Source: a virus. Taken from it: DNA of 64,000 nt. This document shows, one piece after another, positions 16,020 to 33,836 of the stretch. The position numbers were made by a program, and so were the translations under genes. The stretch lies in IMG/VR virus record IMGVR_UViG_3300045988_080644. One strand, given 5' to 3'. Every line of letters begins with the position of its first letter. Within the stretch, counting starts at the first letter, position 1. The notes below the pieces were generated by a model. That model was not told where the DNA came from and ran no database searches. It saw nothing but the letters and a program-made list of their open reading frames with translations.

Positions 16020-16228
16020 AAAATGTGCCTGAGGGTCGTTAATCCTCTCCTTTCTTAGTCAAGAGAACGTTGCAACTTGCCACTAAGACACACTGTTTTT
16101 GAGTTTTTGTAAGTCCTCCGACTTATTAAAGTTTTCGCATAATTTTGATAAGAATTCTACTTTCACAAGCAAAACTCTTTGAGCCTTATTCAATAATTTA
16201 AAAATTATATAAAATTTAGGATAGAAAG

Positions 16229-16300
16229 GAAATGCGGACAGATTCGAACTGCCGACCTTCTACTCTACGGTAGATGCTCTAACCACTAAGCTACACATTT
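16229..16300 (-). tRNA. tRNA-like gene with a non-canonical 6-nt anticodon loop (isotype unresolved)
   Basis: Good acceptor (AAATGTG/CGCATTT), D arm (GCTT-AGTGGTTA-GAGC) and T arm (GGCAG-TTCGAAT-CTGTC). The perfect anticodon stem TCTAC/GTAGA encloses only CGTAGA; the alternative fold is a 4-bp stem with an 8-nt loop. Confidence 0.5.
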
Positions 16301-16451
16301 CATTACAATTCAGTAAGAGCATTTGTTTTTATTAAACGCTTTACCTAGTTAGTTGACTATGTGCCACCACATACTGCCATATTGAATCAGACAGCCTATT
16401 CCAGGGATTAAGCATCTGGACATGCTATTATACTAGTATTGCTATATAGCC

Positions 16452-17057
16452 TTAATTCATAAAGGAGTGCTCTTTACATAATTTATATACAAAAGGCTTT
16501 CCTTTGTGTTTTTGATAATCACACATTATACATTTGGGGTTAGTACAATGCCTTGCCCCATAAAATCCATGACCAAATTCGTGTACTATTACAGCAACTA
16601 AATCATGTGTTCTATAATCACTAACTATAGATTTATTACTATTTAAAGGAGTTAATCCCATTATTCCATAGTTAGTTTGACCATGTATTTTGTATGATAT
16701 ATCCTTATGAGTTAAACCTATTACATAGGATTGCTCCTTGTTAATATTAAGGTCTTTTAACAACTCATTAGCTAAGTACCTATTCCGAGGCTTATAATAA
16801 GCTTTTTTGGGTAAGTCCTTATTAGCTAATACTTTTACATTAGTCCAATCACCTCCGTATACCTTACTTAATCCCCTTGTGATTTTAGAGGCTAGCTTTG
16901 TAGCTTCCTGTTGTGTAAAATCATCATAAGGTTGTAAATAAATATAAGCAATTGGATCTGCAGGAAAACTATCACAATCTGTAATATTTCCCTTTATAAC
17001 ATTATTAGAACAAGATGTAACTAATAATATTATTAATAATCTAAATAATAGTTTCAT
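16452..17057 (-). CDS. archaemetzincin-like (peptidase M54-type) zinc metalloprotease lipoprotein
   Basis: Lipobox LLVTSC. HEFGHGFYGARHC-TNPK-C-I-M...C..C matches the archaemetzincin pattern HExxH..G..HC-x4-C-x-M plus a distal Cys pair. Confidence 0.65.
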   Translation of the reverse strand: MKLLFRLLIILLVTSCSNNVIKGNITDCDSFPADPIAYIYLQPYDDFTQQEATKLASKITRGLSKVYGGDWTNVKVLANKDLPKKAYYKPRNRYLANELLKDLNINKEQSYVIGLTHKDISYKIHGQTNYGIMGLTPLNSNKSIVSDYRTHDLVAVIVHEFGHGFYGARHCTNPKCIMCDYQKHKGKPFVYKLCKEHSFMN

Positions 17058-17064
17058 AATCTAA

Positions 17065-18126
17065 TTAATATCCTTTATTATAATTTAAATTTAAATCATA
17101 TTTATTTGCATAATGTTTTCCCTAAACTCTTTGAGGAGCATTTCCATAATGTACTTTTAATGGATGTCCTTCTTCTCCAGATTCATATATATAATTACCC
17201 TATCTAACAGGCAAAGAATATATAGAATCTCCTACTGCGTTATTGTTTATCATATAGTTAAGTGCATCTGTAGGTAAATTAACACAACCATAAGATTTAT
17301 TTCTAATTCCATTTTTAAAATCAGTCTATCTACTCTTAGGCATAATATGAAATAAAACGGAAGTTTTCTACTTAGTGTTTGTATTATCTCTACTTCCCTC
17401 ATTCCATCTAAATGCTGGATGTCCTTCATAACTAGAAGAAGATAAAGTAAAAATACCAGCAGGTGTTACCTAGGCTTGTTTACTTCCATTATAAAAGTTT
17501 TTATCTTTCTAGTATATTGGATCAGTTTTATAATTATTCCAAAAATTATATCCATCCTAGTCATTAGATAAACCTGTCATAACATCAAATTGTGCTAAGG
17601 CTTTGTTTCCTTGCATGTGTTTTAATTGATGATTATTTCTATCTAGTATCCAATAAGGTTCAGTAACACCACTATGTATTTTATGGTCTATAATAGCCTA
17701 TTCATTCTTGTTAGTAGATAATGGATAAGGTTTTGGCTCAAACTTATTAATCCAATTAGTTAAACTAGTAAACATATCGGTATCTTTGTTAGTCTACTAA
17801 TTCTTTTTTAACTAATAATCATGCCATGCCTATTTACTTTTTACACCCCAATCTCCATCTACTGCAATATTATAACCAGCTTTAACTAGTTCCTACTGCT
17901 ATTGACGAACTTTGTTAGGGTCATACATAGCACCATATTTAGCTCTTAATCTAGCATCATAATTATTTTGCTGTTTTCTTCTAGTCTAGAGCTATTTAGA
18001 ACCCTATGTAGCTCTCTGATTCATCTATTTTACCTTTTTTAATCCAGAATTAGTAAAATCCTTCATTTTCTATCTTTGTACTCCAATAATGTTTCCAAGA
18101 TAACTATTTTCAAAATTTCCTGTCAT
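17065..18126 (-). CDS. L,D-transpeptidase (YkuD) domain protein with PG-binding repeat; TAG-recoded
   Basis: Absent from the track. Hand translation gives 353 codons from ATG 18126 to TAA 17065, with 19 in-frame TAG and no TAA or TGA. Reading TAG as Q gives QQELVKAGYNIAVDGDWGVKSKQAWHDYQ (PG_binding_1-like) and FHIMP...NKSYGCVNLP (YkuD His / catalytic Cys motif). Confidence 0.7.
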
Positions 18127-18199
18127 AAATATTAATATTTAAGTTATTATTTTTAATTGATTAATCACTTATTTATTATATGTCTATGGCATAGAAATT

Positions 18200-18243
18200 A
18201 CCAATAAATTAAAACTCATACTACTTTCGCAAGCAGTATGAGT
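18200..18243 (-). terminator. rho-independent terminator after the tRNA-Leu gene
   Basis: 9-bp stem ACTCATACT/AGTATGAGT (18214-18222 / 18235-18243), followed on the reverse strand by UUUUAAUUUAUU. Confidence 0.55.
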
Positions 18244-18373
18244 TAATGTGTAAGTCATTTTATTGACTTATCAACTCAACTACAAGAAATTCATCAATTT
18301 TCACAAATTAATAATTAATATGTCGCTTAGACGGGATTCGAACCCGTAAGACCATTCCTGGTCAAGGGATTTT

Positions 18374-18960
18374 CTTACTACACTTGCTTTTATACAAGCT
18401 AACTTAAATAAAGGGATTCGAACCCTTAATCCTCAAGAGATATTTAATGACGACTTTAGAGGAGATTCCGTCAATCTGCTGCCGTATACCAATTCCGCCA
18501 TATTTAAGTTATTGTAGTCTGGACTATTTTATTACCTTATCAATTAACTTCGAAGTAAGGAATTAGGTTTTACCTCTCTCAATGAGCGTCTCCTTTTTTA
18601 CATAATGCATTACTATTATAACCTTATTACTAAGGATGAAGTCTAAACCATTCCTTTTAATTAACTTAGGTATCTCCTCTATAGTCTCTACACATTTATG
18701 CTGTAACACTCCAATTTACATTTAAGATAGATTAGCGTTCTATCACAATTTAGCTCGTCACCACCAAAACCTATGTCACCATAAGTGAGGCTTCTGTCGC
18801 AAGTTAATTAGATTTCTGAATACTGCTTCTATAATCATTACTCTGCTTCTTACACAGATGCTAACCTTTTTACAATTAGTAATTAACTTGTTTAATTAGG
18901 GAGATTCTACTTCTATTATTTCTAATAGAGCACTCAAATTCACCATTACTGGTGTTCCAA
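18374..18960 (-). ncRNA. group I intron in the anticodon loop of tRNA-Leu(TAA)
   Basis: 587 nt inserted between U34 and A35. The 5' exon ends in U and the intron ends in G. Core elements are R-like GTAGAGACTATAG and S-like AAAATAGTCC (P7 GACTA/TAGTC), P3 candidate ATCTCC/GGAGAT directly 3' of P7, and IGS candidate GAGT opposite exon ACTT. There is no ORF inside. Confidence 0.7.
18402..18509 (-). ncRNA. tRNA-like module nested in the 3' part of the intron
   Basis: A 9-bp bracket ACTTAAATA/TATTTAAGT encloses a GG-containing D-loop-like AATTGGTATA and a consensus T arm AAGGG-TTCGAAT-CCCTT. The central arm is non-canonical and contains CTCTAAA (18455-18461). Confidence 0.45.
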
Positions 18961-19210
18961 AAGTCCCTCGTGTATCCCAGTTTCACCACTAAGCGATAAA
19001 GCAACTAATTATCTGCTAGTTGCCAACAATATTTGGGAAAAAACCAACATGTAATTTATGGGGGTTGGTATTCTTATTTTTCAAACAAATTAAATACGTT
19101 CAACATCATAGTCATATCCAATACCAATGTTTTCTAATAACCAAGATGGATCATCCAATACATAATCATCCGGAACTTCTACTGTTACTTTTAATACTAT
19201 TTTCTTCATA

Positions 19211-19570
19211 TTATAATTGTTCTAAAATATTCTTCGCAATATATAAGGATACTTCTCTAGTAGTATGCTCAGAATCATTAAGTACTAGAAGATATTTATC
19301 TTTATCATCAGTTTTCTTAGTTAATTCAAGTAAATACTTTTTATTAATTAATAAACCTTTAGTTACTACTATATATTCTATACACAATTTCTTAATAACA
19401 GCAGTTAAAGAGCAACCAATAATAAATTTTCTGCAATCTTTAGTTACTATTAGGACATATTTATTCAGTGCCTCTAAACTAACTATATCTTCTATATTTA
19501 TTTGTCGGTACTCAATGCCTTTAAATACAAGAAATGTGTCAGAATCAATTTGTATTGTTTTTATTTCCAT
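19211..19570 (-). CDS. LytTR-like DNA-binding domain protein (tentative)
   Basis: 119-aa ORF whose pattern I.DIVSLEA..KYVLIVTKD..F.....L..V...L......V.K..LIN..Y...L follows the LytTR beta-fold consensus. The antisense track ORF 19020..19583 is rejected. Confidence 0.4.
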   Translation of the reverse strand: MEIKTIQIDSDTFLVFKGIEYRQINIEDIVSLEALNKYVLIVTKDCRKFIIGCSLTAVIKKLCIEYIVVTKGLLINKKYLLELTKKTDDKDKYLLVLNDSEHTTREVSLYIAKNILEQL

Positions 19571-20394: not shown

Positions 20395-20467
20395 GGTCAC
20401 GCTAGGGATTCGAACCCTGTACTGTAGTCTCACAAACTACCGTGTTACCAGTTACACTAGACGGACC
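20395..20467 (-). tRNA. tRNA-His(GTG)-like, imperfect acceptor stem
   Basis: D arm GTGT-AACTGGTA-ACAC, anticodon arm GTAGT-TTGTGAG-ACTAC, T loop TTCGAAT and an extra 5' G typical of His. By eye, 3 of 7 acceptor pairs are mismatched (GTCCGTC vs GCGTGAC). Confidence 0.5.
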
Positions 20468-25641: not shown

Positions 25642-25702
25642 AAATATTATACTTATGTTATTTATTCATAGATAGCTAATAACGTACAACTGTTACTAGC
25701 TA

Positions 25703-25747
25703 TTTCGTCCAGTCTCATCAGTATGAATTTTATAGTCTCCTGGCTGA
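25703..25747 (-). promoter_or_regulatory. conserved ~46-nt upstream element, copy 1
   Basis: TTTCGTCCAGTCTCATCAGTATGAATTTTATAGTCTCCTGGCTGA aligns at roughly three quarters identity with 26700-26746. Both copies sit about 85-90 nt upstream of a start codon, and a non-conserved hairpin lies between element and ATG. Confidence 0.5.
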
Positions 25748-26275
25748 CTTATAAATTACCTGTCTTTCCAGGTTGTCAGTTGTCTCTCCAACAGTCTAAT
25801 ACACAAGACGCGCTGCTTGTGCTCAGCTATGTAAGACGTACCGCTCACACTCGGCTAATTAAACAATTTCTCTTACTCCTTGTTTAAGGGAAGCCTCTCT
25901 TTTAGCACCGAGGTTATCGCTTTAAAAATGTAGAGTCCTTCAACACTTACTATCCCCTCTACTAACTGTCTTTACGCTTTCTTACTTCTAAAGTCTTTTT
26001 AATACTTTAGTTCTACCAGTAATACTTTCAATGTGTTACGACGCGCTAAATACCTCCTGCACAAACCTATAAAGGATAAACACCCGTTCTACTATTTAGC
26101 TATATACTAGGATGATTTTTCAACTTAATTTAAAACATATTAGATAGGAACAGGTTTTACACAATACCCTGTATTACTTTCCGACTGTAGTACGGCAACC
26201 TATAGCTAGATATATCCTAGCCAGATTTTTTAGATTAAACACAGCAGTTTATACACTTACTCAGGTGTTTTTAAT

Positions 26276-26626: not shown

Positions 26627-26699
26627 TTTTTACTTATTTTAGTTCATGGACACAGAGTCATTACTAATACTATCCAGTGATTAATAATTTTCCTCTGTG

Positions 26700-26746
26700 T
26701 TTCGTCTAGGTCTCGTCAACATGAATGTTATACTCTCCCTAGCTGA
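26700..26746 (-). promoter_or_regulatory. conserved ~46-nt upstream element, copy 2
   Basis: TTTCGTCTAGGTCTCGTCAACATGAATGTTATACTCTCCCTAGCTGA, paired with 25703-25747. Confidence 0.5.
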
Positions 26747-26961
26747 GTTTTATTTTTGCATAAGCCATTATTAGTTAACCTATACACTAAAAGGTTTTTA
26801 ATTCTGATTTAATTATGACTATAGTTTATATTTTAGTGAAACATTAAAGTGCGAGTTACTTATGCACCCAATGTTTGAAAATTGACTTGTAATGTGAAAG
26901 TAGTAAAAACCACTCTCCCACAACAGCGCCACCTTGCAGCCGTCTCGATTGTGTTATCCGC

Positions 26962-31672: not shown

Positions 31673-31716
31673 TAACTTAAATACACATTTGGCTAGTTTT
31701 GATAACTAGCTAATAT

Positions 31717-31788
31717 TCTCTTATGGTGTAATGGTCAGCACAGAAGACTCTAAATCTTTTAGTCAGGGTTCGAATCCTTGTGAGAGAA
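31717..31788 (+). tRNA. amber suppressor tRNA, anticodon CTA (reads TAG; probably charged with Gln)
   Basis: 72-nt cloverleaf with acceptor TCTCTTA/TGAGAGA (U1-A72), D region GTGTAATGGTCAGCAC, anticodon arm GAAGA-CTCTAAA-TCTTT (CTA at 31750-31752) and T arm CAGGG-TTCGAAT-CCTTG. Its D region resembles the phage's own tRNA-Gln(TTG). Confidence 0.85.
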
Positions 31789-31878
31789 GAATAGCAATAG
31801 TAGAAACCTCCACGTGGTGCTATTCGGGTAATGCTAATTCTACTTTAAAAAATGATTTAATTATAAAAGATATGTATT

Positions 31879-32782: not shown

Positions 32783-32992
32783 TTATTTTCTCCATATACT
32801 AGTTATACTATCTATACCTAGTAATCCCATACAACAATATAAAACTGTATCTATCATATCAGGAGCTTGTTTAGTTACAATACTACAATATATAAGTACT
32901 ATTAAACTAACTACCCATCCTAATATGCCACACACTCTTTTACTACTTATTCCAGTATGTGCTGTTATTAATTTAATTAAAAACTATTTCAT
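32783..32992 (-). CDS. small two-helix membrane protein (holin-like?), TAG-recoded
   Basis: Absent from the track. Hand-verified 69 codons, MK(TAG)FLIKL...ILGWVVSLIVLIYCSIV...VLYCCMGLLGI...WRK, ending in TAA with one in-frame TAG at codon 3. Confidence 0.5.
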
Positions 32993-33113: not shown

Positions 33114-33836
33114 TCATACCTAGTTACTATTCTAATTATATATTTGAGCAATTGGATTTAAACCCTATTGCTTATTCCACTAATTAATAATCTATTTATC
33201 CCTATTTCTCCCTCTATTCATTTCTACATTATAGAAGGCTGGTCTTGTATTATAGTTCTTCTATTTTAATCCCTATTTAAACTGTCCAAAGTTCTAAACA
33301 TTCTATAAGTTTTTATATCTACCATTAGTTAGACTATCAGTTACATTTTTAGTCCATCCACCTAAGTTAGATGCCCTTCTTCCAAATGAATAATATTTTC
33401 CAGGTCTGCCATCTTCTATCATAGATAAATGTGAAGTGTCAAAAGCAGCCTACTATGGAATACCCTAATTAACTAAGGAGATATATCTTTGTAATACTTG
33501 AGGCTATGAGTCACTAATCTAAAAAGGTCCGCCCTACTAATAAGTGAGAGGATGATTCTTCTTTAAATCTTTTGTTTTAAACCATCCATTATCTAATATT
33601 GATCTATGACCATTTGGCTTATGTACTTCACCACCATCTTCATGTTTCCATTTCTTTGCATTCTAAGCAAATATGGCTCTTTTTCTAGTTAGAGGATTTT
33701 TACTATGTGTTAATTCTTCAGTAGTTTTACCTGTTCTCTTTTTAGTCTCAGTAAATTTTCCTCTATTTTCTTTTTTAATGTGTATTCCTGAACCTTTAGC
33801 TAGATAAGGGATACCAAATATTTCTAAATCTTCCAT
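33114..33836 (-). CDS. hypothetical 240-aa protein, TAG-recoded
   Basis: Absent from the track. Triplet-by-triplet check gives ATG 33836 to TGA 33114 with 17 in-frame TAG and no TAA or TGA. The product MEDLEIFGIPYLAKGSGIHIKKENRGKF... matches no motif. Confidence 0.6.

Follow-up and report, generated by a model that had tools for sequence, protein, structure and literature searches.

A TAG-recoded YkuD-domain gene and its TAG-free metzincin partner in a crAss-like gut phage

Two adjacent genes on the minus strand of a 64,000-nucleotide stretch of viral DNA (IMG/VR record IMGVR_UViG_3300045988_080644; the whole stretch is called the window here) form a two-gene cassette of a crAss-like gut phage of about 180-190 kb. 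The first gene (17065-18126) codes for a modular wall enzyme of 353 amino acids (aa) with a catalytic domain of the YkuD fold, and is written with TAG as a codon for glutamine. The second (16452-17057) codes for an archaemetzincin-like lipoprotein of 201 aa and has no TAG among its glutamine codons. We lean, if slightly, toward viewing the YkuD-domain protein as a lysin of the rare YkuD class, made late and dependent on the suppressor tRNA, and not as a cross-linking enzyme, because it has no export signal, carries asparagine in place of the arginine of transpeptidases, and belongs to a group of phage proteins that join one N-terminal module either to this catalytic domain or to other domains.

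The recoded gene

A sequence-only reading of this DNA had placed a recoded gene in a gap at 17,058-19,019 thought to be free of open reading frames (ORFs). Translation bears out the frame: from 18126 to 17065 on the minus strand there are 353 sense codons and a TAA stop (17065-17067), with 19 in-frame TAG codons, the first of them at codon 19 (18070-18072), and no internal TAA or TGA. The gap does hold this gene, but its remainder (18321-18997) is taken up by a split tRNA-Leu(UAA) gene. That we are dealing with a real gene, in which TAG means glutamine and the domains are as assigned below, we regard as close to certain.

A standard-code gene caller is blind to the frame, a circumstance that could speak for a chance open frame or a decaying pseudogene. 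We give that explanation practically no weight, as it is refuted by the chance expectation and by intact orthologues. From base composition (the G+C content of the window is 31%), a run of 354 codons free of TAA and TGA has a probability of about 4e-10 at any one start; for all six frames of the window together, the figure is about 5e-5. Orthologues were found in six other loci, with catalytic domains 34-95% identical to that of the window gene. All seven genes, the window included, lack internal TAA and TGA, so that no frame disruption of this kind is seen at the locus in relatives, and each has 10-21 in-frame TAG codons. In an alignment of five YkuD-bearing genes, TAG exchanges with CAA/CAG in the same glutamine columns (for example, columns 30, 57, 98, 99, 136, 202, and 252). 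Invariant catalytic residues and significant Pfam and fold matches, described below, also argue against decay. The full-length product is in fact already present in the protein database (P0001-P0020, 84-99% identical; proteins are numbered with P and loci with L here), together with more distant relatives, and near-identical copies of the protein are encoded on contigs of 175-192 kb.

The sequence-only reading also remarked on a late-gene codon usage within the early/tRNA region, and this holds: the gene is TAG-rich like the structural genes, yet lies amid genes of the standard code. TAG makes up 19 of its 30 glutamine codons, or 5.4 per 100 codons, a density equal to that of the most recoded structural genes; the neighbouring minus-strand ORFs, when pooled, have 1 TAG vs. 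93 CAA/CAG. In the plus-strand genes from 36861 onward, which include those of the terminase large subunit and the portal, 33-83% of the glutamine codons are TAG. The presumed decoder of the 19 TAG codons is a suppressor tRNA with anticodon CUA, located by tRNA calling at 31716-31789 (plus strand).

The terminase of the window is 27-29% identical to those of crAss-like phages and 42-47% identical to those of two uncultured gut phage records. How the large crAss-like phages of Bacteroidales lyse their hosts has, to our knowledge, hardly been characterised, and no member of the group appears to have been cultured. The Zeta crAss-like phages, as described in PMC12386605, match in size, tRNA load, amber suppression and G+C, which is a likeness by description and not by phylogeny.

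The YkuD-fold catalytic domain

The catalytic domain spans aa 132-353 (17068-17733, minus strand). When TAG is translated as glutamine, Pfam YkuD (PF03734) matches aa 159-302 above its cut-off (26.8 bits vs. 23.4; E=8.5e-6), covering positions 4-144 of the 146 in the hidden Markov model (HMM), as the sequence-only reading would lead one to expect. The motif that had drawn attention in the first place, FHIMP...SYGCVNLP, is present and supplies the catalytic pair, His260 in FHIMP (17347-17349, minus strand) and Cys281 in SYGCVN (17284-17286, minus strand). The two are separated by 20 residues, which fits the family spacing H-x(18-21)-C with [S/T]xGC, and H260, S278, G280, and C281 are invariant in 14 sequences that are 41-94% identical.

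A search of the PDB with the single protein sequence gave chance hits only. An AlphaFold model was built from P0001, which is 99% identical to the window protein, and 13 relatives. The mean predicted local distance difference test score (pLDDT) of the model is 74, with values of 80-94 over much of the catalytic domain and less confident loops. When the model was compared to the PDB by Foldseek, all 27 hits at E<=1e-3 were of the L,D-transpeptidase fold, with probability 1.0, and they include Ldtfm and LdtMt2; the carboxypeptidase Bd1075 of Bdellovibrio ranks second. Inserts and the additional N-terminal module of the phage protein keep the template modelling scores (TM-scores) of these matches low, at 0.23-0.6.

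The family is small. A profile search of 1.84 billion cluster representatives returned 253 proteins at E<=0.001, which indicates a small divergent branch, apart from the mass of cellular YkuD proteins. By tblastn, the protein had no match in 50,697 GenBank phage records, and a scan of IMG/VR with the family alignment found three close relatives only. Some relatives of the catalytic domain are proteins of 1000-2200 aa with LysM and YkuD, and one distant relative joins Phage_lysozyme2, SLT, and YkuD.

Two features bear on the chemistry and the site of action. First, the residue two positions past the cysteine, arginine in transpeptidases (GC[IV]R), is Asn283 here. Asparagine occupies this position in at least 90% of the family, and only P0043 has GCVR. 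DpaA, a hydrolase of the YkuD family, is also without the arginine conserved in LD-transpeptidases (reviewed in PMC12729407). The change to Asn283 may thus be a sign of hydrolase chemistry, and we judge hydrolysis, rather than transpeptidation, to be reasonably probable. Second, the YkuD-domain protein has no recognisable signal peptide, lipobox or membrane anchor. No 19-residue window of it reaches 1.7 on the Kyte-Doolittle scale, and its N-terminus, MTGNFENSYLGNIIGVQRQK, is polar.

The same two features bear most heavily on the function first proposed for the protein, that of a true L,D-transpeptidase which would remodel host peptidoglycan, for example stabilising the cell until assembly is done. 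The YkuD fold and the full His/Cys pair agree with such a function, as do the retention of GCVR in P0043 and the domain order, PG_binding_1 followed by YkuD, which is the same in the cellular protein 4xxt. However, with no signal peptide, lipobox or anchor, the protein would find the wall of an intact cell out of reach, and the arginine is replaced by asparagine in nearly all members; these are the weakest points of the proposal. In addition, synthesis after the code switch would leave little time for remodelling, and the domain is exchangeable with unrelated domains, as phage lysin domains are. A transpeptidase function is therefore doubtful, and we consider it improbable.

The N-terminal module and the exchange of catalytic domains

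The N-terminal module comprises aa 1-110 (17797-18126, minus strand), which are predicted to form one long helix and then a short unit of three helices. The motif V..QQ.LV.AGY...VDGDWG..S..AW..YQ in this region resembles PG_binding_1 at aa 69-105 (17812-17922). The matches that suggest a wall-binding module are all weak: PHROG endolysin families at aa 28-109 (E about 4e-4), the PG-binding domain of PDB entry 4xxt by the family profile (E=9e-4, no other PDB region being reached), and PG_binding_1 on the orthologues (E=0.008-0.02, under the cut-off). Pfam PG_binding_1 gave no hit on the window protein at E<=1. Thus, in place of the 'PG-binding repeat' that had been described, there is a single, weak PG_binding_1-like domain.

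In sister phages, the same N-terminal module (58-67% identity) is fused to other C-termini, either of the P0032 type (310 aa) or of the P0113 type (381 aa, very common). Conversely, P0023 and P0025 carry the YkuD domain behind another N-terminal region, which ends in a glycine-rich hydrophobic stretch, LIIGGIGGIGGIGSIPLIF. Shuffling of catalytic domains behind a targeting module is a hallmark of phage lysins. One sister locus (L010) has as neighbouring genes one for Amidase_3 and one for a GH25 muramidase that bears a lipoprotein signal. The C-termini of the P0113 and P0032 types matched nothing in Pfam, PHROG, and PDB profile searches, and the AlphaFold model of P0113 (pLDDT 42) was unusable. 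By eye, a Cys...His pattern can be discerned in these alternative C-termini, which is a lead only.

The metzincin lipoprotein

The partner gene (16452-17057, minus strand) begins MKLLFRLLIILLVTSC and starts 7 nucleotides past the TAA of the YkuD-domain gene, one fewer than the 8 given before. The description of its product as a secreted metalloprotease with an archaemetzincin signature is borne out by the lipobox, the zinc site and two database matches. The signal and lipobox occupy aa 1-16 (17010-17057, minus strand), the signal MKLLFRLLIILLVTS being followed by Cys16 in LVTSC. The lipobox is kept in three lineages, where orthologues have NLVSC and LCAC, and Pfam LPAM_1 matches weakly (E=0.51). 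The protein carries the site HEFGHGFYGARHCTNPKCIMC, and its zinc motif, HEFGHGFYGARH (16548-16583, minus strand), is followed by CTNPKCIM, in agreement with the C-x4-C-x-M of the Met-turn; compared to HExxHxxGxxH, there is one extra residue before the glycine. His159 and, judging from its position, Glu160 belong to the HExxH part. The L004 orthologue has the canonical form, HEFLHSRGLPHC.

The archaemetzincin model of NCBIfam (NF033823) scores 66 bits (E=3.8e-18), under its cut-off of 145. The best PDB sequence match is AmzA (2x7m, E=2.2e-5), with an alignment that spans HExxHxxGxxHC....CxM. The Peptidase_M54 HMM (PF07998), proposed earlier as a check, did not hit the partner protein at E<=1, and the Pfam matches that it does have, to matrixin and reprolysin, are weak; it is the more distant homologues, at 33-40% identity, that carry PF07998. 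As regards the second, structural Cys4 zinc site of archaemetzincins, the protein has Cys171, Cys176, Cys179, and Cys194 but no C-terminal CxxC, and the L004 orthologue has CNRC. From its sequence, then, the partner is best described as an archaemetzincin-like lipoprotein, a predicted protease with an intact zinc site that falls below the strict thresholds of the family.

Just past the metzincin stop, a non-coding stretch at about 16330-16450 (minus strand) appears to be conserved in the diverged L004 (11650-11720). In L004 the gene caller ran through a TAG, and the translated tail ...KGMLNHWNRLSVMAVCGGT corresponds to this stretch of the window. The stretch had no match in Rfam and may represent a structured RNA or serve a regulatory function.

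Conservation of the pair and its split code

TAG is absent from the glutamine codons of the metzincin gene in the window (0/6) and in its phage orthologues (0/8, 0/4, and 0/6), that is, 0/24 over four lineages, which would be very unlikely by chance at the TAG share of the YkuD-domain gene. The L004 orthologue ends in TAG and the others in TAA. Since it is free of TAG, the metzincin gene is readable in the standard code of the host. The figures of 0/24 and 19/30 indicate that the second gene is suited to the standard code and the first to translation after the code switch.

Synteny in relatives, which had been suggested as a check, is conserved, the YkuD domain being directly followed by the metzincin gene in five settings. 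The first comprises the window and its close relatives L001-3 and L019-21. In the second (L004/5), the two genes are 34% and 44% identical to those of the window, and in the third (L006/7), 55% and 62%, with the other N-terminal region. The fourth (L011/12) is of the P0043 type, and there the contig ends inside the partner gene. L013/14 and L023 make up the fifth. The metzincin is absent where the first gene bears another catalytic domain. Its place is taken in L008 by a YkuD_2 gene of 150 aa (E=1.5e-29), and in L010 by a TAG-rich gene without a known family and the GH25 lipoprotein gene. That the YkuD domain and the protease move together across two N-terminal contexts is compatible with a functional link or with simple linkage.

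In the P0025 lineage (L006, 5343-9982), genes for Band_7, Trans_reg_C, and OmpA-family (333 aa) proteins precede the pair. L006 also has a TAG-containing gene for a protein of 294 aa, the C-terminal half of which is glycine-rich and hydrophobic, and the whole looks like an envelope-directed cluster.

These contexts have some bearing on whether the pair could serve in outer-membrane release. In such a scheme, a DpaA-like YkuD enzyme would cut the proteins or stems that hold the outer membrane to peptidoglycan, and the protease would cut non-covalent tethers, for final lysis, replacing or aiding spanins. The periplasmic face is the predicted site of action for both proteins, the arginine missing from the phage enzyme is missing from DpaA too, and the pair adjoins the phage OmpA-like and Band_7 genes in one lineage. 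Moreover, a sister phage in which another domain has taken the place of the fused one has a YkuD_2 gene of its own downstream, so that a YkuD-type function stays in the locus. On the other hand, we know of no covalent links between outer membrane and peptidoglycan documented for Bacteroidales. The spanin gene of crAss-like phages is TAG-biased, whereas the protease gene here is TAG-free, which suggests early rather than terminal action and weighs against a purely terminal lysis role for the protease. We hold this scheme to be quite unlikely.

Copies in bacterial genomes

Homologues of the pair were also sought in bacteria, one genome being scanned per species. In Prevotellamassilia timonensis Marseille-P2831T, a contig of 765 kb (L023) has an intact metzincin gene of 58% identity. 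Directly upstream of it, across a spacer of 10 nucleotides, are 144 codons whose translation matches residues 207-350 of P0029, a phage protein, at 94% identity. This lysin remnant has two in-frame TAG codons at glutamine positions, and the rest of the gene is missing. The captured pair (L023 2555-3612, equal to about 457.7-458.8 kb of NZ_LT629844.1) is next to a HigA-like gene and lies in an island of 26-34% G+C over 1.2 kb, the flanks of which have 45-53% G+C and consist of housekeeping genes. The remnant and the metzincin together provide a lead to Prevotellaceae as hosts, at least for the P0029 lineage.

In two other genome assemblies, represented by L022 (3001-3600) and L024 (2659-3621), the protease gene stands alone, at about 30% G+C and with clearly higher flanks. 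The metzincin gene of L024 comes after a 5' fragment of a muramidase gene of the GH25 lipoprotein type, like that of L010; the bin is labelled Wujia chipingensis, and the contig may be mis-binned. Bacteroidota homologues with a G+C equal to or above that of the flanks also occur (L015-17). L013 and L014 were at one time taken for plain bacterial contexts of the metzincin alone, a view that was overturned when tblastn found a TAG-bearing lysin remnant upstream. The simplest reading of these cases is that DNA of recoded phages entered such genomes more than once. After transfer, the TAG-free gene stays readable and the TAG-bearing one does not.

The bacterial copies are also relevant to a different role, at entry. 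A virion-packaged YkuD enzyme could open the wall at injection, and the early metzincin could destroy incoming copies of it, or other phage proteins, and so exclude superinfecting phages; the arrangement resembles that of an effector gene followed by an immunity gene. The enzyme gene is TAG-rich like the structural genes, whereas no TAG is used in the gene downstream, the product of which would be periplasmic. The catalytic domain has relatives inside very large LysM proteins, and in one protein together with a phage tail lysozyme domain. In three bacterial genomes the protease gene forms a low-G+C island, and one captured protease stands behind a truncated lysin remnant, much as orphan immunity genes stand behind toxin fragments. 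YkuD-related effectors of the type VI secretion system (T6SS) with a downstream immunity gene are known (10.1101/2020.02.18.954545). Nevertheless, the enzyme gene is about 19 kb from the structural operon and on the opposite strand, the partner has an intact protease site, unlike an immunity protein of the binding type, and exchange of catalytic domains behind a wall-binding module is a trait seen more often in endolysins. A role at entry is, in our estimate, rather unlikely.

Function of the pair

From the features above we infer a late timing, a hydrolase chemistry and a role in lysis for the enzyme, and a site and a function for the protease. The YkuD-domain gene would be readable past codon 18 only when the amber-suppressor tRNA is active, which would confine its synthesis to the late period. 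The lysin would be made in the cytoplasm, and the wall would become accessible to it only once the membrane is opened as infection ends. There it would hydrolyse L,D-type peptide or amide bonds of peptidoglycan, as a carboxypeptidase, an endopeptidase or an amidase. The metzincin lipoprotein would reach the periplasm by export whether or not the code had been switched, and its likeliest substrates there may be envelope proteins, or copies of the lysin itself. Whether the YkuD-domain protein is the endolysin proper of the phage we consider close to an even call.

Several points weigh against a lysin. No holin or spanin was recognised beside the pair in the 64-kb window, which is part of a genome of about 185 kb, and a canonical endolysin may lie elsewhere. 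The neighbours of the pair are tRNA genes, a LytTR-like gene and small ORFs without a known family; in a hydropathy scan for a holin, many small hydrophobic ORFs were seen, none of them adjacent or convincing. A second lysin was not found in the window by tblastn with Amidase_3, GH25, YkuD_2, and other neighbour proteins from sister loci, and Pfam searches of four late window proteins, one of 2124 aa included, gave no match. The YkuD hydrolases known so far trim stems or detach proteins and do not dissolve the sacculus, so that an enzyme of this type might not lyse the cell alone. The PG-binding assignment is weak, being under the Pfam cut-off in orthologues and without a hit on the window protein, and the alternative C-terminal domains of sister phages were not recognised as hydrolases. 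Within the family, P0043 retains GCVR, and P0023 and P0025, in which a glycine-rich hydrophobic segment replaces the putative wall-binding module, would be periplasmic before lysis. Finally, the adjacency of the two genes could stem from common descent of the block and not from functional coupling.

An early reading of one gene and a late reading of the other would also allow the pair to be viewed as a two-code cassette of toxin and antidote, or of exclusion. The protease would be made first and would neutralise the late YkuD enzyme or other incoming phage proteins, the enzyme arriving with the virion or being set free when the cell lyses. The protease, which needs no suppressor, would then have been captured repeatedly by Prevotellaceae and other gut bacteria as a stand-alone anti-phage gene, and the truncated, TAG-bearing enzyme remnant in P. 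timonensis would be a by-product of one such capture. We think this unlikely.

Surroundings of the cassette

The part of the gap not occupied by the YkuD-domain gene, 18321-18997 (minus strand), is a split tRNA gene, with its 5' part at 18997-18961 and its 3' part at 18373-18321. When joined, the halves fold as a tRNA-Leu(UAA) of 87 nucleotides with a long variable arm (ARAGORN). The insert of 587 nucleotides (18960-18374) lies between anticodon nucleotides 34 and 35, after U, and ends in G. This site is the classical position of the group I intron of tRNA-Leu. No group I intron was found in the insert by Rfam at E<=10. The DNA of the insert (18334-18940) is 77-88% identical to DNA of the Lak megaphages of Prevotella; it also matches a gap of 515 nucleotides between two 'DNA primase' coding-sequence pieces of the crAss-like IAS virus NC_049978.1 (L018, 86472-87072), as well as cr116_1. 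The insert therefore looks like a mobile, intron-like element common to very different Bacteroidales phages. A weak tRNA-like structure is found inside it at 18403-18507 (Rfam and ARAGORN, 33 bits).

Between this tRNA gene and the YkuD-domain gene is a terminator-like hairpin of 14 pairs followed by a T-run (18213-18244, minus strand). The sequence-only reading had given the YkuD-domain gene its own upstream terminator at 18200-18243. The hairpin is indeed there, at 18244-18213, but it is most simply the terminator of the tRNA-Leu(UAA) gene, since the rest of the gap is that gene. Closer to the start of the YkuD-domain gene, a sigma-70-like promoter match (18175-18204, minus strand) consists of TTGGTA, a spacer of 18 nucleotides, and TATAAT. 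It is a consensus match only, and promoter-like matches in this region are not commoner than in shuffled sequence.

About 1 kb upstream of the YkuD-domain locus, a stand-alone LytTR-domain protein of 119 aa is encoded at 19211-19570 (minus strand), which may be a regulator. Its gene is kept in all three phage lineages examined (L001 8473-8832, L004 7753-8118, and L008 8251-8610), whatever the catalytic domain of the lysin.

By ORF scan, there is one other TAG-rich gene outside the structural operon, at 33114-33836 (minus strand; 240 aa, 17 TAG vs. 5 CAA/CAG). Its product has no Pfam or PHROG match and has 1626 relatives. Among the matches listed, these are mostly of 379 aa and align in two blocks, about 139 residues having been lost here or gained there. 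It is followed by an ORF of 69 aa with one hydrophobic segment (32783-32992, minus strand). The early region also has two RAGATH-1 hammerhead ribozymes (25666-25750 and 26644-26749, minus strand), with scores of 81 and 70 bits, above the Rfam gathering cut-off, and two odd tRNA calls (16228-16300 and 20395-20466, minus strand). In one of these calls the anticodon loop is abnormal (ARAGORN reports 'tRNA-???' and an anticodon of 2 bases; Rfam 52 bits), and the other is a weak tRNA called by Rfam alone (35.7 bits).

Relation to known systems and implications

Much of what the cassette is made of has already been described: the YkuD class of lysins, the hydrolytic relatives of YkuD (DpaA, Csd6, Bd1075, and Tae5), and TAG-biased lysis genes. 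What is new is the split-code pairing of a putative YkuD lysin with a metzincin lipoprotein. In the searchable literature, we found nothing on a YkuD-type lysin in crAss-like phages, on a phage archaemetzincin, or on a two-code gene pair; wall enzymes likewise go unmentioned in the main text of a metaproteomics study of code 15.

The PhaLP database of phage lytic proteins includes YkuD among its catalytic classes, with 10 entries (PMC8310338), and the list of endolysin domains has been reused in PMC5017753. As in that class, a YkuD-fold catalytic domain here is part of a modular phage wall enzyme, in this case with a putative wall-binding module of weak similarity. However, the present protein is very divergent, belongs to a crAss-like phage of Bacteroidales, is amber-recoded, and has asparagine for the arginine of the motif. 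A preprint on crAss-like phages (Borges et al., 10.1101/2021.08.26.457843) reported lysis genes to be the most TAG-biased of all; those for the amidase and the spanin belong to the small number that prefer TAG, and recoding was proposed to time lysis. The YkuD-domain gene resembles these lysis genes in being a putative wall-degrading gene that prefers TAG over CAA/CAG, the translation of which would wait for the code switch. In those phages, though, a lysozyme-type amidase gene lies beside that of the spanin and next to the structural genes, whereas here the enzyme has a YkuD fold, its gene stands alone amid standard-code genes and tRNAs on the other strand, and its partner is free of TAG.

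Among hydrolytic YkuD proteins, DpaA (LdtF/YafK), an amidase which detaches Lpp from peptidoglycan in E. coli, shares with the phage enzyme the fold, the His/Cys pair and the lack of the transpeptidase arginine, and is a hydrolase (PMC12729407). It differs in being a secreted housekeeping protein without a wall-binding module, and it has no significant sequence match to the phage enzyme. The T6SS effectors Tae5/Tlde1 and the L,D-carboxypeptidases Csd6 and Bd1075 likewise have YkuD-related folds that cut, and do not build, peptidoglycan. Tae5 is toxic in the periplasm and has an immunity gene in the same locus, but it is of the DUF2778 family with a shorter His-Cys spacing, whereas the phage protein has the spacing of YkuD (20 residues), and the downstream gene in the phage resembles a protease and not a known immunity protein. 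Cellular proteins with PG_binding_1 and YkuD (4xxt, from a Clostridium) have the same domain order and an SxGC motif that aligns with that of the phage; unlike the phage protein, they are exported and keep GCIR. As for the partner, its core around HExxH...GxxHC...C-x-M aligns with AmzA, as expected of archaemetzincins (MEROPS M54; AmzA 2x7m; NF033823). It departs from them in being a lipoprotein, in the extra residue of the zinc motif, in the lack of a C-terminal CxxC in the window lineage, and in scores below the cut-offs. It is also phage-borne, and has been captured repeatedly by bacteria as a low-G+C island.

The first gene offers a concrete candidate for a lysin of a rare catalytic class in phages of Bacteroidales. 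The pair is a clean natural case of code gating of a single gene: the two genes are 7 nucleotides apart, one is unreadable in the code of the host, and the other avoids TAG. The remnant in P. timonensis, with in-frame TAG codons in a chromosome of the standard code, is direct evidence of DNA transfer from a recoded phage to a cultured bacterium. If the protease should prove to be an exclusion factor or an antidote, it would represent a new kind of phage-derived defence gene.

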